Counted from the stretch's first letter, positions 24,435-45,985 are shown. The stretch: DNA of 64,000 nt from a virus (IMGVR_UViG_3300012000_000001:133027-197026), one strand, 5' to 3'. Numbers and translations: made by a program. Notes: generated from the letters alone by a model not told the origin.

Positions 24435-25436
24435 TTAAAGCACTTTAGCGGCAATAAGACATCCTTTAGATACAGCGTGCAATGGATCCGCAGCATGTTT
24501 AAATTCTTTAATTGGTAATGGAAACTCATTATCAATTAATTTTTGTTTAAAATATTCAATATATCCTTTGGCTTGAGATGTTCCTCCCGCCACAACAATC
24601 GTCAATGGTTCTTTAAATTTGGGAAGAGACTTATGATTACTTAATGCTGATGATAACTGTTTAGTAGTATAGTCTATTAATCTATCATAATAAGAAGCAA
24701 CTGCTGCTAATATAGGGTTGTCATTATGTTCACCCACAGAAAAGTTTCCGCCCTCTTTTTCTGCTTGTACAACACTGTCCGGCTCTCCTGTAGCAACTGC
24801 ACTCATTCTATCAACCCAGTCTCCAGATTTAGTTGTTGAAAATACAACAGTTGGCTCACCGTTTAACATAACGCACACATTAGTCATTCCCGCCCCACAA
24901 CTGATGCCTATGCCAGTATAATCGTTATCATCTAATTCAGCATAACACAGAGCCTCTGCTTCATTAACAGACCTAGCAGAATACCCACAACTATTTAAAA
25001 TGGTTTTTACAACATCTTCATGATAGCTGACATCAAAGTCTTCATCTTCTTGGTCTACTGGTTGTGCAGGTACGCAGAATACTATTTTTTCATTAGGCTC
25101 AGATGCTTGTCCGACTACTTCCTTTAAAATAAAAGCGAGCACTCTTTTTGCATCTTTTTCTTTGGCAGAAACTACGCCCTTAAACATTGGTCTTTTTGCC
25201 GTGTCATTTCTTTCGATGGCTTTTTCTATGGCGTCTTGACCTAAAATAATAAATGAACCGTCTGTGTCTTTTATAAAAGTTTTACCAGTCAATCCTTTTT
25301 CTATCATCTTTGTTGCAACTGGTGTTGAGGGCTTAATAATATAAAAAGCGTCTCTGAAATCTTTATATTGCACTTTATCATTATTGTCTTCTGATAATAC
25401 TATAAAGCTTGTTCCTACGTCAAGACCCTTTGCCAT
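24435..25436 (-). CDS. Actin-fold ATPase (actin-like protein)
   Basis: Phosphate1 GLDVGTS, connect1 NEAEAL, phosphate2 SCGAGMTNV, adenosine VAGGTS, connect2 AVSKG. Confidence 0.85.
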   Translation of the reverse strand: MAKGLDVGTSFIVLSEDNNDKVQYKDFRDAFYIIKPSTPVATKMIEKGLTGKTFIKDTDGSFIILGQDAIEKAIERNDTAKRPMFKGVVSAKEKDAKRVLAFILKEVVGQASEPNEKIVFCVPAQPVDQEDEDFDVSYHEDVVKTILNSCGYSARSVNEAEALCYAELDDNDYTGIGISCGAGMTNVCVMLNGEPTVVFSTTKSGDWVDRMSAVATGEPDSVVQAEKEGGNFSVGEHNDNPILAAVASYYDRLIDYTTKQLSSALSNHKSLPKFKEPLTIVVAGGTSQAKGYIEYFKQKLIDNEFPLPIKEFKHAADPLHAVSKGCLIAAKVL

Positions 25437-25439
25437 AAT

Positions 25440-25757
25440 TTACCTCTTTAAATTTTGTAATTTATTAACAGACAAAGAAATATTCTCATCTGTTTGCTGA
25501 ACTTTTCCAAATTCTTGGTATTTTTTTTCGATCCCATCTGTGTTAATATCCGTAACAAATTTTCTATCGTCTATAATAATTTTATTTTGTGGTTGTTCAT
25601 TATTAGTATGGTTCTTATTATTTTTAATAACTGACTGGGCCCCAAAAATAGTCTGACTATTACTAGTATGCAGTCTGCCAATGATATAGCCAATACCACA
25701 ACTAATAATATTTAATACGGTCAAAATTATGATCAAAATATATATCATTTCAGACAT
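25440..25757 (-). CDS. Small N-terminally membrane-anchored protein
   Basis: Hydrophobic N-terminal helix; 3 nt upstream of the actin-like gene. Confidence 0.7.
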   Translation of the reverse strand: MSEMIYILIIILTVLNIISCGIGYIIGRLHTSNSQTIFGAQSVIKNNKNHTNNEQPQNKIIIDDRKFVTDINTDGIEKKYQEFGKVQQTDENISLSVNKLQNLKR

Positions 25758-25794: not shown

Positions 25795-25825
25795 AAAAGA
25801 AAAAAGGAGCGATTACTCGCTCCTT
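25795..25825 (-). terminator. Intrinsic terminator after ruvB
   Basis: AAGGAGCGA-GTAA-TCGCTCCTT followed by T-run. Confidence 0.8.
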
Positions 25826-25863: not shown

Positions 25864-26754
25864 CTAGATAGAGCCTATAACCCTGCCCTTTTGGGTTCTT
25901 ACAACATACCCTTTACGCACTAGAAATGGCTCAATACTATTTTCAATAGTGTCTAAAGCAATCCCGGTCATTGCCGAAATAGACTTTAGACCCAAAGGAT
26001 TGCCCTTGCTCCGCTTTAGTGCATCAATATACATTCTATCATATAGATCAAGACCCTTACCGTCGATACCTTGGATCGTAAAAATCTCATCAACAGTAGC
26101 ATCTGCCGTATGACAAGCCATATAGTTTTTGTACCAGGCCAGTCTAGCATTTAAGATTCTTGGTGTGCCTTTGCTTCTTTTAGCAATCTCCAACAGATCA
26201 TCGTCTGTAATATCAATACCTAGCTTAGTGGCGATCAATCTTGCTACTTTAGCTAGATCATCATCACTATAAAAAGACAAATGCTCCTTAATTGTAAAAC
26301 GATCATAAAATGGCTGACTTAAACTACCACCGCTTGTTGTTGCGCCAATGAGCGTAAACATTGGTAGATCAATATGTTCTGGTTCATCTTCCATAGTAAT
26401 ATGCAGAACAAAGTCTTCCATAATCGGATATAGAAATTCTTCAACAATTTTTGGAAGTCTATGAATTTCATCAATAAACAATACCGACCGTGCAGTAACA
26501 CCCATAATATATGGTAGAATACTTTTTACATTACGAATGTTTGCAGCATTGAGCGTTCGCAGATCAACACCCATTTCATTCGCTATAGCACTGGCTATGG
26601 TTGTTTTACCAAGCCCAGGAGGCCCATCAATTAAAACATGCGGCAATACACCACCAGACATTTTACAGCCTGTGGCTGAAATTCGCAGCCTATCGATAAC
26701 GTCTTTTTGTCCGATAATTTCATCAAAAGTGGTTGGTCGTGAAATATTAGCCAT
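25864..26754 (-). CDS. ruvB: Holliday junction branch-migration ATPase RuvB
   Basis: RPTTFDEIIGQ, GPPGLGKTT, FIDEIHRL, EEFLYPIMED, FTLIGATT, SKGTPRI. Confidence 0.93.
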   Translation of the reverse strand: MANISRPTTFDEIIGQKDVIDRLRISATGCKMSGGVLPHVLIDGPPGLGKTTIASAIANEMGVDLRTLNAANIRNVKSILPYIMGVTARSVLFIDEIHRLPKIVEEFLYPIMEDFVLHITMEDEPEHIDLPMFTLIGATTSGGSLSQPFYDRFTIKEHLSFYSDDDLAKVARLIATKLGIDITDDDLLEIAKRSKGTPRILNARLAWYKNYMACHTADATVDEIFTIQGIDGKGLDLYDRMYIDALKRSKGNPLGLKSISAMTGIALDTIENSIEPFLVRKGYVVRTQKGRVIGSI

Positions 26755-26757
26755 GAT

Positions 26758-27159
26758 TTACATTCCTCCAAAAATTTTCATTGCGTCTTTTACCAAAATT
26801 ACAGGATCATTACATTCCGTTATGTTATGAACCTTGTTTATAAGATCAACTGCTTCTTGTTTTGAGAAGCCATAATGTTCTAATATTTTGTATGCCCTAT
26901 TTAAGTATTGTGGACTAGAATCTGATTGTTTTTCTGTTGTCGGTATGGCAATTGGTTGGCTTTTTTTAGCGTAAATAGATTTAATATTTTCTATACGACG
27001 TATTCTATATATATTACCACAATCGCATACCCATTTAAAGTTCTTAACCTGTACTTGATTCAAGAAGAGCCAATGCTCTGCTTCGCACTCTGTGTTAGTG
27101 CATTTATATTTAAACTGTGCATCTAGACTAATCGGTTTCAGGCTTTTCTGTTTTGTCAT
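26758..27159 (-). CDS. Zn-ribbon protein with C-terminal RuvA domain III-like module
   Basis: C-x4-C...C-x-C; C-terminal AYKILEHYGFSKQEAVDLINKV...LVKDAMK resembles RuvA-C. Confidence 0.6.
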   Translation of the reverse strand: MTKQKSLKPISLDAQFKYKCTNTECEAEHWLFLNQVQVKNFKWVCDCGNIYRIRRIENIKSIYAKKSQPIAIPTTEKQSDSSPQYLNRAYKILEHYGFSKQEAVDLINKVHNITECNDPVILVKDAMKIFGGM

Positions 27160-27559
27160 TTTGTTCCTTTAACCAAAAAATAAAATCGCCAACCTCGGCA
27201 TCATACCCACTCTCCAGTATACCCTTGTTGACCAGATGATGCAAGATGTTGCTAACCATTCTAGAATTTAATGCCTCAATTATAGTATACAAGATTTCAT
27301 CATTAATATAGTATTTAACCATTTCATTTGGTTTGCGTTTTTGTTTTGTGTGTTCCTGTACTATTAGTAATGATTCATTGTATGGTAATGCTTGTTCCAT
27401 TTCTTCTAATTCTTCGTTAGATATATTGTATAATGTAGAATCTAATAGGTGAGCTGGTTTAACATCAGTATTTTCCTCTCCAAAAAAACGAAATACTAGT
27501 TTTCTAGCACTATTTACAAAATCTTCTATATTATTAATTTCATACCATGATTTGCTCAT
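27128..27559 (-). CDS. Hypothetical protein (winged-helix-like C-terminus)
   Basis: ORF track. Confidence 0.65.
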   Translation of the reverse strand: MSKSWYEINNIEDFVNSARKLVFRFFGEENTDVKPAHLLDSTLYNISNEELEEMEQALPYNESLLIVQEHTKQKRKPNEMVKYYINDEILYTIIEALNSRMVSNILHHLVNKGILESGYDAEVGDFIFWLKEQNDKTEKPETD

Positions 27560-30533: not shown

Positions 30534-33203
30534 TTAAATCAAATTACCCAAAGTTTGTCTAAACGTAACCACACCTGCCTCACCACCCAAATTTGTATAC
30601 CAATCACCCTTGCTTCGATAAGAATCATCAAAAGTCTTCAAAGGATTACTACTAGAGATTCTTCTGATGTTCCCGTCGTTTGCGTTGCTACCAACAATAT
30701 ACTTGAGTATCGGACTCTTGTCAACCTCGACTTTAAGAGTTTTTCTGATATCGGACATTTTTGGCAAATTGTCTACGACAGAACCTACTGTACTAGTCTT
30801 ATTAAGACTTTCGGTAATTGGATTAGTATTCTGTTCATCATCATAAAGATTATTTAGCGTTGAGTTCATAGAATTTAGAGAAATATGACTTTCTCTAATC
30901 TTGTCTGGATCGATACCATTAAGATTATATCTCGCAAGAATAGTCGCTATTTTTGCAAAATACTCGTCTTTATTCAGTCTTGGAATATCGAAAGTTACTC
31001 TATGAATTGTTACGGCAAAAAACTCAATGAGTAGCCATTGATCTATTGTTTCACACATAACCTTATTAGAGATATACTTATCGTAATCCAAGCCGAACAA
31101 ATTAATAATATGATACATAATCTGACTATCTGATGATGCTGTACTGTAGTAGTAGTTGTCCGACCTGCCTTCCTTACTACCATATTGTGTACCACAGTAC
31201 TCTATAATATTCTTATAGATAGATACTTGGTCATTAAGCTTATTTAGCATTTTTGTAGCACACTTTTGAAACCAGTCATTGAAAGATACCAGATTGACCC
31301 CATCCTTTTTGAGTTTTTCAACAGCATTTTGCTTGATTGCAAAAATCTTTTGATCATTAAAAAGTTTAGTTCCAAGAACCGTCTTATCGTTTTGAGCCAA
31401 GGAAACAATTTTATTAATCTTAGGATATCCTGCAACAGAGCCGTATCTAAGAATCGGGACATAAATGATTTCATTCTCTTCGTCTTCAATATAGGACATT
31501 AGATCGTCTGACAACTCATTAAGCAAATAGGAGTCATTGATATCATTACCACCAAGTGCTTTGCACTCTTTGTCGGCACCAAGATTCTTGATGGCAAAGA
31601 TTTCATCCTTACTAATGGTTCCAGAAGAACCCCTACTCTTACGAGTACCAGTAGAGAGCAGACTACGATAGGTAGAAACATTAACTACGTTAGTTTCTCC
31701 ACCAATATGCTTGATAAGATTTTCAAAACCTTCAGTAGAATCCTCTGGAGTATCGCTATCAATCATTAGATATGCAAAACAATCATTTTGATTGCAATAC
31801 TTTGTGACAATCTTTTTTGCTGTTTCTGCACCCTTAACATCACATCTGAAAAATACCATTTTACCGGACTTCTTTTCTGAAGACCAATAATATGCTGGTT
31901 TACCCTGTAGTGTTTCATGATGAATCTTATCGGTAAGATAAATCATTCTGCGAGAACGATATCCTGCGGTTCTCCAGTTAAAGACATACAACTGCTTATT
32001 TTTCTTGAACTTATATTCAAGATCCTTACCACTACTCAATTCATGGACAATACCATCTGGATCGGTCCACGATGCACCGGCAGTCCATCCTCCAGCAAGA
32101 TCACTCAGATTATAATATGTGGTATATGCATCAACAAGATTTGTGCAAGACTCAAGTTTCTTACTCATGTCTTCCTTAAGAGAAAGATAAATATGCTGAG
32201 TTTTTTCCTTGAGAGTCTTTATGACTTGCTTAGTATATTGCAAACCTTCTCTTGAAACATCCATTTCCAATTCACCAATACCGAAATGAATTTCAAGATA
32301 TAGGCCGGACCCCAAAATCTCTCTGACTAGATGCTTCCAGTTATCAACATCGGCTTTCTTAAATGCACGATTCCATCTCTGGATATTATCATTATCGATA
32401 TCTTTTTCTTCTCCAACAATCTTATTAGCATCGATGGGATATGCAATATTACCCATGATAGCCACAAGTCCGCTACCGGGGCCATTATAAGCACTTGGGT
32501 ACTGATTATTATTACTAGATACTCTACCAATACGCCAACCCTCACCATCAATAACAACATTGGTATGAGAGTAGGAGTGATCAGAAATACTATCGTCAGT
32601 ACCACCATCAATAATCGGCTTCATCTTAAAATAGTGGAAAATGCGCTTACTCTTGATGGTAAACTCATGAAAATCATGTTGCTTAACAGCGAAACTAATC
32701 TCCAAACCGTTTGGTTCAGACGTATCGGTAATACCAAACAGATTCAGACTAGGCACACCACTTTCATCCATAGCAGCAATATAAGAATACTTTTTGCCAT
32801 TATGATACGATGTCGTACTAAAACTCTTTGTATAAGCAAATGGACTCTTGCTCCCCAAGCCCAAACATCCGACAAAATCATTGCTATCATTTTTATTGGA
32901 TGCACCATACGTTGTATACAGTTCTTCCATATCTTTTTGGCTAAGACCGGTGCCATAATCACGCACAGTAAAAGACGGGGAAGCCTGAGTAGGCAGACTA
33001 ATCTTAAAAGGATTTTTGTTACCGGCAGCGATATGAGCATCATAAGCATTAGTAGAAAGCTCACGAATAACTGCCATTACCTTATCAGAGTACAAAGAAT
33101 CTGAAAGGATCTTAAACATTTTGCTTGTTTGAGCAATAGTAAACTGATTTGTGCTATCCAAACCGCGACTGTGAATCTCAACCGTTCTATCTGCCAACTT
33201 CAT
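30534..33203 (-). CDS. rIIA: rIIA-like protein (GHKL ATPase N-terminus)
   Basis: AVIRELSTNAYD, VRDYGTGLS, GLGSKSPFAY, FGIGELEMDVSREGL; adjacent to rIIB. Confidence 0.9.
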   Translation of the reverse strand: MKLADRTVEIHSRGLDSTNQFTIAQTSKMFKILSDSLYSDKVMAVIRELSTNAYDAHIAAGNKNPFKISLPTQASPSFTVRDYGTGLSQKDMEELYTTYGASNKNDSNDFVGCLGLGSKSPFAYTKSFSTTSYHNGKKYSYIAAMDESGVPSLNLFGITDTSEPNGLEISFAVKQHDFHEFTIKSKRIFHYFKMKPIIDGGTDDSISDHSYSHTNVVIDGEGWRIGRVSSNNNQYPSAYNGPGSGLVAIMGNIAYPIDANKIVGEEKDIDNDNIQRWNRAFKKADVDNWKHLVREILGSGLYLEIHFGIGELEMDVSREGLQYTKQVIKTLKEKTQHIYLSLKEDMSKKLESCTNLVDAYTTYYNLSDLAGGWTAGASWTDPDGIVHELSSGKDLEYKFKKNKQLYVFNWRTAGYRSRRMIYLTDKIHHETLQGKPAYYWSSEKKSGKMVFFRCDVKGAETAKKIVTKYCNQNDCFAYLMIDSDTPEDSTEGFENLIKHIGGETNVVNVSTYRSLLSTGTRKSRGSSGTISKDEIFAIKNLGADKECKALGGNDINDSYLLNELSDDLMSYIEDEENEIIYVPILRYGSVAGYPKINKIVSLAQNDKTVLGTKLFNDQKIFAIKQNAVEKLKKDGVNLVSFNDWFQKCATKMLNKLNDQVSIYKNIIEYCGTQYGSKEGRSDNYYYSTASSDSQIMYHIINLFGLDYDKYISNKVMCETIDQWLLIEFFAVTIHRVTFDIPRLNKDEYFAKIATILARYNLNGIDPDKIRESHISLNSMNSTLNNLYDDEQNTNPITESLNKTSTVGSVVDNLPKMSDIRKTLKVEVDKSPILKYIVGSNANDGNIRRISSSNPLKTFDDSYRSKGDWYTNLGGEAGVVTFRQTLGNLI

Positions 33204-40543: not shown

Positions 40544-41239
40544 TTAATCTTCAAAAACGTATGACCAGTATCTACTGTCAGACTTACCTTGTAAAGCATC
40601 CCAATAAATACATCTGGCTATATAGCAAGGAACGCCAATCTTTCCGCAGTTAATACTCCAGTGTTGTTCAGCCTTTCTGTATTGACCAAAGCCTTTGTTG
40701 CTACCATAGGTCAAATGCTCCATACCATATAGTCGCAACATATGGACATCCAAACAAACTGCCTTACATTCTAGAGGATGAATTTGCTCCAAAGTAAATG
40801 CCACTTTGGCGGAACCTAGTCCCGTGATTTTATTGACAATCTCATTCCTCTTTTTAATATGATATTTCTTAGTAGTCAAATAAAAGTCCGTAGGCTTTGC
40901 CCAAAACTGGTCTTTGAAAGCCCACAGATATTTGGTACGATTGTTGTACAATCCTACTCCAGAGTTTTTAAGTTTTTCTCTCAGAAGTTCTTTGTCATTG
41001 ACCCACTCTTCATAATTTTTAATTGCTTCGTAGCCACGAACATTACCTTTCCAACTAGTATGCACAGACATGAAACTAAAGAGATACCTTCTAAAGATAT
41101 CGGCAGTATTTTGCGGTCGCACACTCTCCCAATAGTCTTTATAAGCAACTACCTTATCTTTTGGAAAGTTTCTAAAAAACTCGTCGGCCTTGCTGGTACT
41201 CATAACAATCGGCTTTTTCTCAATAACTATGTCTGTCAT
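40544..41239 (-). CDS. HhH-GPD family DNA glycosylase
   Basis: SGVGLYNNRTKY, ITGLGSAKVAF, CLDVHMLR. Confidence 0.8.
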   Translation of the reverse strand: MTDIVIEKKPIVMSTSKADEFFRNFPKDKVVAYKDYWESVRPQNTADIFRRYLFSFMSVHTSWKGNVRGYEAIKNYEEWVNDKELLREKLKNSGVGLYNNRTKYLWAFKDQFWAKPTDFYLTTKKYHIKKRNEIVNKITGLGSAKVAFTLEQIHPLECKAVCLDVHMLRLYGMEHLTYGSNKGFGQYRKAEQHWSINCGKIGVPCYIARCIYWDALQGKSDSRYWSYVFED

Positions 41240-41277
41240 AGTGTCCTCAAAAGGTTTGTTTCAAAGTGTATGCTGCG

Positions 41278-41306
41278 ATTCTACACTAGAGGTATCGACT
41301 TGTCAA
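41278..41306 (-). promoter_or_regulatory. Sigma70-type promoter
   Basis: TTGACA-N17-TAGAAT. Confidence 0.85.
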
Positions 41307-41374
41307 GACCTGTATCTTTAAACCGTTCCAGCAGCCCCATGTAAAACTTAACAATATTTCCAATAATCTACTTT

Positions 41375-42136
41375 TTATTCTAGTTGAAATTTTATCATCA
41401 AGTCTCTTTGTTCTTTTGTATTTTTCCAATCCCCAGGCTTAATATATTTTTCTAAATCTAACTTGATTTCATCTATATAAACCGATGCTGAAAGTTTTTT
41501 AATCATTTTCATATGAGACACAAGATTAGTCACATGAAGTTTTTTTATTTTATTGGAAAGCACAGAACAAACCGGACCCAAAGTACCCACCCCACTCAAA
41601 CATAAATTACTAGCACCTAAAATAATACCCAAATCAGTTGCAAAATCATTTGATTCTATTTTAATATTTCTATTTTTTATAAGCTCATCTATAATAGGAT
41701 TATTATTATTTTCATAAATAACAATTGTTTCTTTATATTGATCTATTATTTTTAAAAAATAATTCAAAGGATTTTGAATATAATAACTATTAATTCTTGC
41801 TGTATCAAATATATCTCCAGATCTTATATGAACTACTAAAGTTTCTTCATTAATATTTTTTATATTAATTTGTTTAAGATTTAATTTTATAATATTTTGT
41901 ATAATATCAAATTTTTCTTCTGGGGTAGCTGTAGCAGGACCATAAAAAAAATTATGATTTTGAATAATTTCAGAATATTTTATATGATTATTAAATATAA
42001 ACCTATTTATAAGTGGGTGATCTGATGATTCAAAAACAAAATTGTTTTTTTTACAATACTGTATAGCATTACATAATTGAAATACATTATTTCCAAATCT
42101 TCCGCACCATTTTGATAACATTATTTTTTTACTCAT
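41375..42136 (-). CDS. GT11-like (alpha-1,2-fucosyltransferase-like) protein
   Basis: GRFGNNVFQL, VHIRSGD, PLNYF. Confidence 0.7.
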   Translation of the reverse strand: MSKKIMLSKWCGRFGNNVFQLCNAIQYCKKNNFVFESSDHPLINRFIFNNHIKYSEIIQNHNFFYGPATATPEEKFDIIQNIIKLNLKQINIKNINEETLVVHIRSGDIFDTARINSYYIQNPLNYFLKIIDQYKETIVIYENNNNPIIDELIKNRNIKIESNDFATDLGIILGASNLCLSGVGTLGPVCSVLSNKIKKLHVTNLVSHMKMIKKLSASVYIDEIKLDLEKYIKPGDWKNTKEQRDLMIKFQLE

Positions 42137-42149
42137 AATGTATTTAATT

Positions 42150-43451
42150 TTATATGTCTCTAATATTAGAGTATAAATATTTAAATGTAGGAAAACGTAA
42201 ACTTATACCACCATCTTGGTTTTCACTCTCGCTAAAATACTGTACAGTTATGATTTTACCAAGAATCTTTTTAGGGTGTTTATAAAAGTCTTTTCTTTGG
42301 TCTATTGTAAAACCACTACCTACTCTAACATCATAACCTTTATGTTTAATTGTTACGCAACTTAGCATAGTTTCTTCTGTCTCTTGACCATCCTTAACAT
42401 ATCTAAATGGTCCCATTTCAACATCGACTACTTCATATTCATCGTCGTTGAAACTCTTATATTTCAATAGGTCTTTGCTACGCTTACCTTTATACGGTTC
42501 ATCTGCACGGAGCATCAATCCTTCCCAATTATATTCTTTAGCCTTGCCCGTCCATTCAGCAAAGTGGTCATCATTTTTAATCAATTCTTGACCAAGAACG
42601 CTAAGACAAACACAAGAATTGTTCTGCATAACAGTTCTGAGATTATTATATCTATGGGTATATGTCTTTGCAGAATCCCCCTTTTTGCTATAAAATTCAT
42701 CGTGGCTAATCATATCAAAAATTTTAAATGAAGGATTAGGAATGGTATGATCCTTCTTTTTAAGTTGCTTCATAATGCCTTGAAAATCTTCATTGCCATC
42801 ATCATCAAGCAAACAAAGTTCACCATCAAATACTACATTAGTAATGTTAAGAGCCTTAATACCATCCCTAACGACGCCAAGAGTATCAAATTCCTTTCCC
42901 GTGCGGGAATAGAAGGTAGTATTGCCATGACCATCAATAATCCCAATACATCTAGCACCATCAATCTTTCTGCTAACATACCAACCATCCTCCCAGTTTA
43001 CAATGCTTGGATTATATTTATCAGCCAGAGCAACGCTAAACTCTGGAATATGGTCGGGAATAGCCTTATTGATCAGCTTATCTCCAGCACGGGTTTTCAA
43101 ATCTTTATCAATAATGCAGTGGATAAGCTCTTCAAATTCTGGGTGACTGTCAATAAAAGTATTGACTGCTCCAATAGCATCATGCCCTGTAATTTCTCGA
43201 TTCTTCAAAGCGTCTAGCAAATCAAAAATAGTCTTATAAAACTTTCCTCTCAAAGTAAACTTCTTTTTAAGGTTGTCACTGGTTACATTATACTGCCAGA
43301 GAGGATGATAGGTGTAAAGTAGAATCTTTTTAATAAAATTAGCTCCACTATCATTAGAAGAAACATAGTCCTCAATAATGTTAACCTTATCAATTGTACT
43401 ACTAGTAGCTTTCAGATCACGAACAAAATTAGACAGATGCTCAAACGACAT
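42150..43451 (-). CDS. lig: ATP-dependent DNA ligase
   Basis: RKIDGAR (motif I), FDGEL, FDMI, EGLMLR, LLKYK, OB domain VGSGF...SLRFPTF. Confidence 0.95.
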   Translation of the reverse strand: MSFEHLSNFVRDLKATSSTIDKVNIIEDYVSSNDSGANFIKKILLYTYHPLWQYNVTSDNLKKKFTLRGKFYKTIFDLLDALKNREITGHDAIGAVNTFIDSHPEFEELIHCIIDKDLKTRAGDKLINKAIPDHIPEFSVALADKYNPSIVNWEDGWYVSRKIDGARCIGIIDGHGNTTFYSRTGKEFDTLGVVRDGIKALNITNVVFDGELCLLDDDGNEDFQGIMKQLKKKDHTIPNPSFKIFDMISHDEFYSKKGDSAKTYTHRYNNLRTVMQNNSCVCLSVLGQELIKNDDHFAEWTGKAKEYNWEGLMLRADEPYKGKRSKDLLKYKSFNDDEYEVVDVEMGPFRYVKDGQETEETMLSCVTIKHKGYDVRVGSGFTIDQRKDFYKHPKKILGKIITVQYFSESENQDGGISLRFPTFKYLYSNIRDI

Positions 43452-43501
43452 TTTTAATTTCTCCTGTGTTTGTCCAAGTATAGCGTAGAAGGATCGCTTT
43501 G

Positions 43502-43717
43502 TCAAGTATCGTCTGTTCGTTTTTGTTTCTTGAATACGATTGCTAAAAGAGCTACTAAATCACTGCCAGTAGTTTGAAACCAACAAGGAAACACAGCATG
43601 AACTATTAAACATAATCCAGCTACTAAACATACTGCCCCATGCATCCAAGCGAAATGAAAATGCTGCCAATATGTCATATTGTTTTCTATTAGATGTTCT
43701 TTAATCTTGTTTTTCAT
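43502..43717 (-). CDS. Small membrane protein (DUF6356-like)
   Basis: HLIENNMTYWQHF..A...LIVHAVFP. Confidence 0.7.
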   Translation of the reverse strand: MKNKIKEHLIENNMTYWQHFHFAWMHGAVCLVAGLCLIVHAVFPCWFQTTGSDLVALLAIVFKKQKRTDDT

Positions 43718-43798: not shown

Positions 43799-44413
43799 AT
43801 GGCTAAAAAGTATTGCTGGTATTGTGATAAAAATCTAGACACTTCTTTATACCATAGGTCTAAAAGTAGTTCAGACGGTTTTCAAGGTATGTGTAAAGAC
43901 TGTCATAAATCATATAGGAAAAATTGGTTGTCTAAAAATAAAATAGAGTATACAAAAAAATGTAAAGAGTGGGCAACAAAAAATAAACAGAAAAAATATT
44001 TAACTCAAAAAGAATGGAGAACCAATAATAGAGAATATTTTCGTGAGCATCAAAGAAAATACAAGGCATTGAAGCGAAAAAATGATCCTATTTTTAGAAT
44101 AACAGGAAATTTAAGAGTTAGGTTAAGAAAGACAGTTAAAGGTATAAATAAAAGTAAAAAAACAATGGAATTATTAGGATGTAGCATAGAGGAATTTAAA
44201 GAGCATATTAAGAAAAAATTTAAAAAGGGAATGACTTGGAATAATTATGGTAAATGGGAACTGGATCATATTAAACCTTGTTATAGTTTTAATTTAATAG
44301 ATTTAGAACAACAGAAAATCTGTTTTCATTATACTAATATTCAACCCTTGTGGAAAAAAGAACATAGAGAAAAGACTACGAATGATACTAGAAAATATCT
44401 TTACGATTTCTAG
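43799..44413 (+). mobile_element. HNH homing endonuclease, paralog 2 (antisense insertion)
   Basis: LLGCSIEEF...WELDHIKPCYSFNL...CFHYTNIQPLW. Confidence 0.85.
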
Positions 44414-44741
44414 ACATAATTAAATAGTTAACCGCTTTAATTATAGAGCTTAAATCATCTCCTAATTTACCTAAGCCGGTATTACATCTGGTACAAAGCC
44501 ATCCTCTAAAAGAATCATCACTATGGTCATGGTCTAATGCCCATTGGAAAGGAATTTTACCGCAACATTCACAAACTTCTGGTTTAGGAGGAGCCTTTTT
44601 ATGTAATTTGCTTCTAATTTTAGAATGTTTTTTAACACATTTCCTACATCTACTATCTAGATTGTCTTTGTACATACTGTGCTTGGGAAAACTTGCTAGG
44701 TTTTTACGTTTCCCACAATATGAACAGACTTTACGGCCCAT
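44388..44741 (-). CDS. Endonuclease VII family protein
   Basis: CECCGK...LDHDH....RGWLCTRCNTGLGKLGD. Confidence 0.88.
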   Translation of the reverse strand: MGRKVCSYCGKRKNLASFPKHSMYKDNLDSRCRKCVKKHSKIRSKLHKKAPPKPEVCECCGKIPFQWALDHDHSDDSFRGWLCTRCNTGLGKLGDDLSSIIKAVNYLIMSRNRKDIF

Positions 44742-45985
44742 TAGAATAATTCTTTGATAGTCTTACCGCTATTTGCAATTTTCATTGGGCGACCATTTTT
44801 AGCAGTAAATGTTGTTTCTAGTGAGATACCCATAGACTTTAAAACGCTTGCCATTAAATCTTGAGAAGTATATGGTTCTGTGATAACTTCTTTTCCGTCA
44901 CTACTAGTTTCTCCAACAACCAGTCCTTTATTAAAAGAACCTCCACCAACCACAACACTCCAACTTCTAGCCCAATGATCTCTCCCACCATTACCATTAA
45001 TGTTTGGAGTACGACCAAATTCTCCCATCCAAATAATAGTAGTATCTTCCAAGCGACCACGATCATGTAAGTCACTAATCAAGGCACTCATTGCCTTATC
45101 CAATTCTGGCAGTTTTTGGTTTTGTAGAGTGGGGAATATATCCTGATGATTATCCCAACCACCAAGATCAACCTCAATAAATGGAACACCCATCTCTACT
45201 AATCGTCTTGCCATTAAACATCCTCGACCAAATCCAGTATTACCATATCTGTCTTGAACTTCTTTCGGTTCTTTAGACACTTTAAATACTTCCATCTGAG
45301 AACTAGTCATGAGTTTGACTGTTTTAGTCAAAAGCTTAGAGTGGTCAGAAGCATAGTCTCCACGCTTTTCGTTCACAAATTTATCTTCAATAGTTTTAAG
45401 CATACGCAATCTTTGATCTAGTCTAGTTTGGTCTATACCCATATCAAGATCACGAACAGTTCCGTTTGAATTAACGACAAATGGTGAATAAGCCGTACCT
45501 AAAAATCCAGCACCAACACTAGGTCCGCCAATACTAACAAACGGAGGAATATCTAGTTGAGGAATAGTTGAAATCAATTCATGAGAAATAACAGAACCAT
45601 AACTAGGATATTCAATATTAGGATTAGGAACATATCCTGTATGCATATAATATCGACCTCTCATGTGGTCTGCTTCTCTTGTACTCATTGATCGTACAAT
45701 ATTCATGTGGTGCATTTGTTGTGCCATGAGAGGTAAGTGTTCACATATTTGAACTCCATCAGCACTAGTAGATATTGGTTTAAAAACTCCACCAGTAGCA
45801 GTACCGGGCTTTAAATCCCACAAATCAATAGTGCTTGGGCCTCCACCCATCCATAAAAGAATAGAACTCTTATTTTTCTTTTTTAAGTCAATAGCATTTG
45901 CCAGAATACTATCTGTAAAGAATAAAGAAGATGCTGACAATGATGAAATTGCAGCACAGTGGTTTAAAAAATGTCTACGGTTCAT
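44741..45985 (-). CDS. DUF1501 family protein with TAT signal
   Basis: MNRRHFL; LLWMGGGPS..D.WD.KP; GGWDNH; MGEFGRTP.IN..GGRDHW. Confidence 0.9.
   Translation of the reverse strand: MNRRHFLNHCAAISSLSASSLFFTDSILANAIDLKKKNKSSILLWMGGGPSTIDLWDLKPGTATGGVFKPISTSADGVQICEHLPLMAQQMHHMNIVRSMSTREADHMRGRYYMHTGYVPNPNIEYPSYGSVISHELISTIPQLDIPPFVSIGGPSVGAGFLGTAYSPFVVNSNGTVRDLDMGIDQTRLDQRLRMLKTIEDKFVNEKRGDYASDHSKLLTKTVKLMTSSQMEVFKVSKEPKEVQDRYGNTGFGRGCLMARRLVEMGVPFIEVDLGGWDNHQDIFPTLQNQKLPELDKAMSALISDLHDRGRLEDTTIIWMGEFGRTPNINGNGGRDHWARSWSVVVGGGSFNKGLVVGETSSDGKEVITEPYTSQDLMASVLKSMGISLETTFTAKNGRPMKIANSGKTIKELF

Follow-up and report, generated by a model that had tools for sequence, protein, structure and literature searches.

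What does a RuvB motor work with when the genome that encodes it has no gene for RuvA? RuvAB is the textbook bacterial branch-migration machine, and two jobs are supposed for RuvA in it: the recognition and opening of the junction, and the tethering and stimulation of RuvB via domain III. The question is raised by a window of 64,000 nucleotides (nt) of viral DNA (IMGVR_UViG_3300012000_000001:133027-197026), the whole stretch analyzed here, which makes up the final 64 kb of a 197,026-bp IMG/VR virus record rated 100% complete by CheckV. On its minus strand, two open reading frames exactly fill positions 25864-26754 (296 amino acids, aa) and 26758-27159 (133 aa); the first is a phage ruvB and the second a small gene directly upstream of it. 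An earlier note on this DNA had read the small gene as a Cys4 ribbon joined to RuvA domain III, without the OB-fold and helix-hairpin-helix domains of RuvA. Our analysis agrees with that reading, and we propose that the 133-aa protein is probably a minimal RuvA substitute, which docks on the phage RuvB and carries the ribbon as its targeting part. The features of the pair, counted from the first letter of the window, are as follows.

25864..26754, minus strand: phage ruvB, 296 aa, with AAA+ N domain, lid and C-terminal winged helix (Pfam, NCBIfam and PDB matches)
26758..27159, minus strand: small gene, 133 aa, with zinc ribbon, linker and RuvA domain III; the proposed minimal RuvA substitute
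26974..27132, minus strand: putative Cys4 zinc ribbon, residues 10-62, four strands (invariant Cys columns, predicted model)
26914..26973, minus strand: linker, residues 63-82 (low predicted local distance difference test score, pLDDT; variable length across the family)
26761..26913, minus strand: RuvA domain III (RuvA_C) homologue, residues 83-133, three helices (fold searches, hhalign, Pfam)
26764..26769, minus strand: GGAGGA Shine-Dalgarno sequence for ruvB (read directly)

Searched alone, the 133-aa protein gave no meaningful match in Pfam, PHROGs, NCBIfam or the PDB (phmmer, and hmmsearch with a close alignment, A1), and tblastn against 50,697 GenBank phage records gave no match. The protein searches had sub-threshold hits to T7 capsid-assembly, to de novo designed proteins and to a lysozyme repeat, all discarded as not meaningful. 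Its relatives form a family of 24 close clusters and 270 clusters at 50% identity, all with sizes of about 110-185 aa; one close homologue is named in its JGI record as RuvABC DNA-binding subunit. An alignment of 68 diverse family sequences (A2) has six invariant columns, P9, C20, C25, C45, C47 and G97, each conserved in 68/68, so the four cysteines of the ribbon are present in every member. The AlphaFold2 model built with A2 reached a mean pLDDT of 86 for the 133-aa protein and divides it into three parts. Residues ~10-60 form a ribbon of four strands (pLDDT 92-97), residues 63-82 a linker (pLDDT 53-75) whose length ranges from 9 to 64 aa in the family, and the C-terminal part three helices at 84-95, 100-114 and 119-130 (pLDDT 87-95 over residues 83-130). 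Before residue 84 no helix is predicted except one 4-residue turn. The OB-fold domain I (PF01330) and the helix-hairpin-helix domain II (PF14520) had no match in the 133-aa protein, and its N-terminal part is modelled as a zinc ribbon where RuvA has the OB-fold. In RuvA the tether before domain III is a 15-aa linker (PMC2628435). By analogy, the variable linker at residues 63-82 may correspond to this flexible tether.

The identity of the C-terminal part is established by four lines of evidence that agree with each other. When the 68 relatives were scanned with Pfam, RuvA_C (PF07499) was the family matched by most of them (14/68, best E-value 3.5e-06); RuvA_C was also found on 50% of the members of a related viral Atlas cluster, which we take as a lead only. 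The 68-sequence family was further compared by hhalign with 20 canonical RuvAs (185-228 aa) encoded directly upstream of bacterial ruvB. The comparison gave a probability of 94.3 and an E-value of 1e-07, and only family columns 85-136 were aligned, to RuvA residues 154-203, which is domain III. Its score of 51.1 stands against 10.9 for the reversed RuvA and at most 15.2 for 20 column shuffles, and the alignment requires a 2-residue insertion between helices 2 and 3 relative to RuvA. A Foldseek search of 350,542 PDB chains returned RuvA domain III at all of ranks 1-8, with 1ixs_A (TMt 0.81, root mean square deviation, rmsd, 1.4 Å over 47 columns) and 7pbl_G (TMt 0.82) as the best. VIA-align, which is independent of Foldseek, placed RuvA in ranks 1-4 among 48,161 representatives: 2ztc_A at Z 7.8 (rmsd 1.4 over 51 residues), 7pbp_G at 7.2, 1ixs_A at 6.9 and 1ixr_B at 6.7, with rmsd of 1.4-2.2 and ~50 residues aligned. 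The next unrelated chain followed at Z 5.3, and generic UBA/CUE domains at Z 4-5; RuvA thus leads the UBA-like domains by ~2 Z. Because the Pfam tally, hhalign, Foldseek and VIA-align agree, residues 83-133 are assigned, from profiles and a predicted fold, as a homologue of RuvA domain III, from which the three-helix domain would descend.

Within this domain, the positions of RuvA that matter for RuvB function keep residues of similar kind. The positions that correspond in the hhalign alignment are listed below.

RuvA L167: family column L/M93
RuvA L170: family column Y/L/F96
RuvA G171: family column G97, invariant in 68/68
RuvA Y172: family column F/Y98
RuvA E176: family column E102
RuvA R/K196: family column K124
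RuvA L199: family column L/I127

Y172 and L199 are RuvB-contact residues as reportedly described by Nishino et al. The columns equivalent to E. coli L167, L170, Y172 and L199 hold L/M, Y/L/F, F/Y and L/I, respectively, in 66-68 of the 68 members. In RuvA, the substitutions L167A and L170A abolish RuvB activity in vivo (PMC2628435).

The downstream gene encodes the expected partner. The 296-aa protein contains the Pfam domains RuvB_N (6.8e-45), AAA_lid_4 (6.6e-09) and RuvB_C (2.7e-17), and its best match in the PDB is E. coli RuvB 9dx4 (7e-65, residues 5-292 versus 23-319). It passes one of two family models, scoring 295 bits with the NCBIfam equivalog NF000868 (above the cut-off of 282) and 275.5 with TIGR00635 (below the cut-off of 299.05). 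The Walker A motif GPPGLGKTT, the Walker B motif FIDEIH, the Arg finger YDRF and the sensor 2 motif GTPRI are invariant across 44 phage RuvBs. The protein is shorter than cellular RuvB, as had been noticed before: it has 296 aa and the phage clade 294-305 aa, against 312-355 aa in solved RuvBs. Compared with the E. coli protein it lacks ~18 N-terminal and ~17 C-terminal residues, together with 4 residues of the beta-hairpin. By sequence, 25864-26754 is thus a genuine RuvB, trimmed and with its catalytic motifs intact. The protruding beta-hairpin of E. coli RuvB that contacts RuvA spans L135-L152 (PMC2628435). This hairpin is present in the window RuvB, though 4 residues shorter. Its tip (RuvB residues ~117-130) is dimorphic in the phage clade (loci L007-L079), being either short as in the window or 5-6 residues longer with an acidic/basic EEDKDK-like end. 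The short form occurs in all related loci that have no small gene and also in many loci that have it. A co-variation test of hairpin length against the LG[YF] or YG[FY] motif was set aside, since the two states follow clades. No column of the RuvB alignment was found that tells loci with the small gene from those lacking it, and the flanks of the hairpin are conserved equally in both.

A total of 80 IMG/VR loci with the phage RuvB were found (69-84% identity). A homologue of the small gene lies directly upstream of ruvB in 69 of them, with 28-67% identity and a gap of -32 to +8 nt. The small gene evolves far faster than RuvB. The converse search with the small-protein alignment found ruvB directly downstream in all 78 loci with enough DNA. 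The linkage is one-sided: the small gene always stands beside ruvB, and the reverse is not true. In the window a gap of 3 nt lies between the small gene's stop codon and the ATG of ruvB, and the GGAGGA sequence lies within the final codons of the small gene, 9 nt ahead of this ATG. The tie of the small gene to ruvB, pointed out in the earlier note, is thus supported. Translation of the two genes, the last of an operon, would be coupled. The order from small gene to ruvB is the same as that of bacterial ruvA and ruvB, and it fits a captured ruvAB operon whose ruvA may have lost or exchanged its 5' two-thirds.

A canonical ruvA was looked for elsewhere in the record. With the models RuvA_N, HHH_5, RuvA_C and TIGR00084, nothing was found in the complete 197-kb genome at E-values up to 1-10. 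Each of these searches matched in 10-14 of 14 control genomes, with the OB-fold model matching in 10 of 14. The RuvA_C search of the genome misses the small protein too, which means that the copy in the window is highly diverged.

The interface with RuvB was addressed by complex prediction, using RuvB (alignment A3) and residues 80-133 of the small protein (alignment A2). The earlier note had asked for a predicted interface, and a complex was indeed predicted, with a score of 0.54 (runs 0.54, 0.62 and 0.51) where the best of 3 controls reached 0.00, but since the complex of RuvA domain III with RuvB is already solved, a pass at 0.54 may reflect likeness or recall only. The runs share at least 84% of their contacts, and the partner has pLDDT of at least 83. 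In calibration, 58 of 80 solved complexes passed the mark, as did 2 of 110 mismatched pairs; scores of 0.60 or lower among these came from only 7 of the 80 solved complexes, plus both mismatches that passed. The output was a score and not an interface. It weakly suggests that domain III of the small protein may bind the phage RuvB.

These results also bear on the idea that the C-terminal part is a generic UBA-like three-helix bundle without RuvB function, its place next to ruvB being inherited synteny. The fold list does contain UBA or CUE domains at Z 4-5, RuvA_C itself belongs to the UBA-like fold class (a Pfam clan), the window protein stays under every sequence threshold, and the small gene is dispensable in some relatives. 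We consider this reading very improbable, because RuvA domain III and not another UBA-like domain leads both fold searches and the Pfam tally, the pattern of RuvB-contact residues is conserved, the linkage to ruvB is strict with the gene in the position of ruvA, and the complex prediction, with 0.54 against 0.00 for the controls, argues weakly in the same direction. The part that the ribbon plays in the proposed RuvA substitute is considered next.

The N-terminal part, at 26974..27132, is predicted to be a Cys4 zinc ribbon. The commonest spacings of its cysteines are C-x4-C-x19-C-x-C (36 sequences) and C-x2-C-x19-C-x-C (24 sequences), and the second knuckle is mostly C-x-C. Modelled alone, the ribbon again forms four strands with pLDDT 92. 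Its median net charge across the family is +7 over ~62 residues, and domain III is neutral. Fold searches with Foldseek and VIA-align on the PDB, and in the viral models of BFVD, returned generic ribbons only; the best matches were the ZitP zinc finger 2nb9 (Z 3.5), LysW and ribosomal protein S27e, and nothing informative was found in BFVD. Such a basic, tethered ribbon would fit DNA binding. Three further features of the window, on the same strand, come into this part of the argument.

25804..25825, minus strand: intrinsic-terminator-like hairpin with a 9-bp stem and T tract, 38 nt past the ruvB stop
27128..27559, minus strand: 143-aa gene of no known family, with a 32-nt overlap with the start of the small gene
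44388..44741, minus strand: endonuclease VII homologue (PF02945, 4.8e-12)

The hairpin at 25804..25825 would close the ruvB transcription unit. The 143-aa gene is conserved upstream in relatives and adjoins ruvB wherever the small gene is missing. Nothing above chance level was found for its product in the Atlas search; a weak DsrD-like (winged-helix) hint is the sole lead (Pfam E 0.11, Atlas 0.77). The endonuclease VII gene is located 17 kb from ruvB, and it is a reasonable candidate for the junction resolvase, as the earlier note had suggested, though its link to RuvB is inferred. RuvC was not found in the phage genome. Outside the window, a RecA-family recombinase gene is present at G000:C1:112465-113280 (minus strand; PF00154, 9.2e-21; open frame of 350 aa).

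The same genome holds other genes of interest around these loci. An Ogg-type helix-hairpin-helix DNA glycosylase (5.7e-08) and an ATP-dependent DNA ligase with an OB domain (1.1e-15) are encoded two genes apart at 40544-43505 (minus strand); they resemble a small repair module and share the strand block of endonuclease VII. An actin-fold ATPase, encoded at 24435-25757 (minus strand) immediately past the ruvB terminator, matches the Volactin family over its full length (PF25216, 3.6e-64) and MreB at only 1.5e-05; a 105-aa single-pass membrane protein precedes it. An 889-aa protein at 30534-33203 (minus strand) has an N-terminal GHKL ATPase domain (HATPase_c_3, 3e-06). Matches to the phage RuvB in the 50,697 GenBank phage records were all below 42% identity, mostly in unannotated gut contigs or in records with a host-like ruvB, and no cultured relative was found among them. 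The closest bacterial RuvBs come from metagenome-assembled genomes of Planctomycetota (42-46% identity; loci L081-L083). A DUF1501 protein (5.5e-103) is encoded at 44741-45985 (minus strand), adjoining endonuclease VII; Planctomycetota and Verrucomicrobiota show a great expansion of DUF1501. The DUF1501 gene and the similarity to Planctomycetota RuvB together give a weak hint of the host.

The neighbourhood and the ribbon could also be read in another way, in which domain III binds the phage RuvB as proposed and the ribbon binds a protein, such as the replisome, the RecA-like recombinase, endonuclease VII or the 143-aa neighbour. The small protein would then be a coupling factor, and RuvB would be recruited to a protein landmark instead of a DNA structure. 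The evidence for domain III applies equally to this reading, the nearest ribbon folds include protein-binding ones (ZitP, LysW, Tim15/DNL type) at low scores, and the 143-aa gene always accompanies the small gene, whose start it overlaps. We regard it as unlikely, since a ribbon so strongly positive (median net charge +7) suits nucleic acid better, and since the 143-aa neighbour stays by ruvB where the small gene was lost, which shows that the two are not an obligate pair.

Several observations weigh against a RuvA substitute with a ribbon that targets DNA. The window's own protein has no sequence hit, and its assignment comes via relatives, profiles and the predicted fold. The Foldseek matches have weak E-values (0.3-1), which is normal for a domain of 50 residues, and small helical bundles can also reach Z values in the range of 7-8. 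With its hairpin shortened and dimorphic, RuvB may present an altered form of the classical interface. The ribbon is without a specific structural relative, and its DNA binding is thus a guess. During infection, the RuvA of the host is presumably at hand. Moreover, 11 of the 80 related ruvB loci have no small gene, and the small protein is therefore dispensable for keeping RuvB. In these 11 loci a homologue of the gene at 27128-27559 precedes ruvB at -8 to +45 nt. Of the gene-less records, four are rated complete (153-229 kb; terminal repeats in one), and neither a homologue of the small protein nor any RuvA was found in these four genomes; the search for the small protein detected it in 4/4 positive-control genomes. 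In the RuvB tree the loci without the small gene do not group together, and both states occur side by side in two well-supported clades; from these comparisons the small gene appears to have been lost cleanly in several lineages, the count of independent losses being uncertain in a quick tree with many open forks. RuvB can thus persist without the small protein, which is an accessory dependent on RuvB.

In a further reading, the small protein would be directed at the host, binding host RuvB as a decoy or hijacker that blocks or diverts host RuvAB, and the phage RuvB would work alone or with host RuvA. An isolated RuvA domain III suffices for RuvB binding in solved complexes (1ixs, 7x7p), lineages in which the small gene was lost still keep the phage RuvB, and the equal conservation of the hairpin flanks with and without this gene agrees as well. 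A decoy would not need translational coupling to ruvB, the conserved ribbon and tether would be superfluous for a plain one, and the small gene is never found away from the phage ruvB (78/78 loci). On this balance we find a host-directed function quite improbable.

The evidence is best accommodated by the minimal RuvA substitute, for which the following mechanism is probable. Domain III of the small protein would dock on the beta-hairpin face of the phage RuvB, as bacterial RuvA domain III does. The flexible, variable linker would join this docking module to the strongly basic Cys4 zinc ribbon, and the ribbon would take the place of the OB-fold and helix-hairpin-helix junction-binding domains of RuvA and supply the targeting, most likely through DNA binding. 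Together with the RecA-like recombinase and endonuclease VII, the pair may drive branch migration or fork remodelling in phage replication and recombination. The earlier note had gone one step further in inferring that the RuvB motor is loaded by the small protein onto a non-canonical substrate; with a ribbon that matches generic ribbons only, such loading is a possibility. In the most specific form of this idea, the RuvB motor of the phages would be self-contained, a tethered monomeric ribbon would deliver single RuvB-docking domains, and RuvB rings would assemble elsewhere than on symmetric four-way junctions, for example at forks, D-loops, DNA ends or a protein landmark; this form is tentative, and we give it distinctly less credence than the minimal RuvA substitute itself.

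If this reading is correct, the small protein would be a natural protein which keeps only the RuvB-docking job of RuvA, its junction recognition having been swapped for a 50-residue zinc ribbon. Its conservation extends over at least 270 sequence clusters from uncultured phages. It would provide a simple system for asking what domain III alone does to the RuvB ring, a means of finding further targets of RuvB, and a view of how phages rebuild the repair machines of their hosts. A loader without a junction clamp, if true, would be a natural experiment that separates RuvB activation from junction recognition. This study also documents a RuvB-carrying clade of large uncultured phages. No description of an architecture combining a zinc ribbon with RuvA domain III was found in the literature searched. 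According to a survey of jumbo phages, the resolvases of these phages are not coupled to RuvB-like ATPases (PMC7824862).

Compared with bacterial RuvA (TIGR00084), the small protein is likewise encoded directly upstream of ruvB, carries domain III at its C-terminus on a flexible linker, and keeps the hydrophobic signatures L-x-x-[LY]-G-[YF] and L-[IV]-[KR]-x-A-L. Unlike RuvA, it has a 50-residue Cys4 ribbon instead of domains I and II, the parts of RuvA responsible for tetramer formation and Holliday-junction binding; it has 133 aa against 185-228 aa, and it does not match the whole-family model. The closest structural counterparts of residues 82-133 are the isolated domains III bound to RuvB in 1ixs, 7pbl/7pbp and 7x7p (TMt 0.78-0.82, rmsd 1.4-2.0 over 47-50 residues). 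However, the sequence identity of these solved complexes to the small protein is only 18-23%, and the partner hairpin in the phage RuvB is 4 residues shorter than that of E. coli. With generic ribbons (ZitP 2nb9, S27e, LysW) the N-terminal part shares the four-strand, two-knuckle Cys4 topology, but it scores poorly against them (Z no higher than 3.5, Foldseek E no lower than 1) and its second knuckle is mostly C-x-C. Finally, the phage genome resembles the T4-type set of UvsX, UvsW or other helicases and endonuclease VII in having a RecA-family recombinase and endonuclease VII and no RuvC. The role would be analogous, in recombination-dependent replication, with the difference that branch migration here would be driven by an AAA+ RuvB of bacterial type and not by an SF2 helicase.

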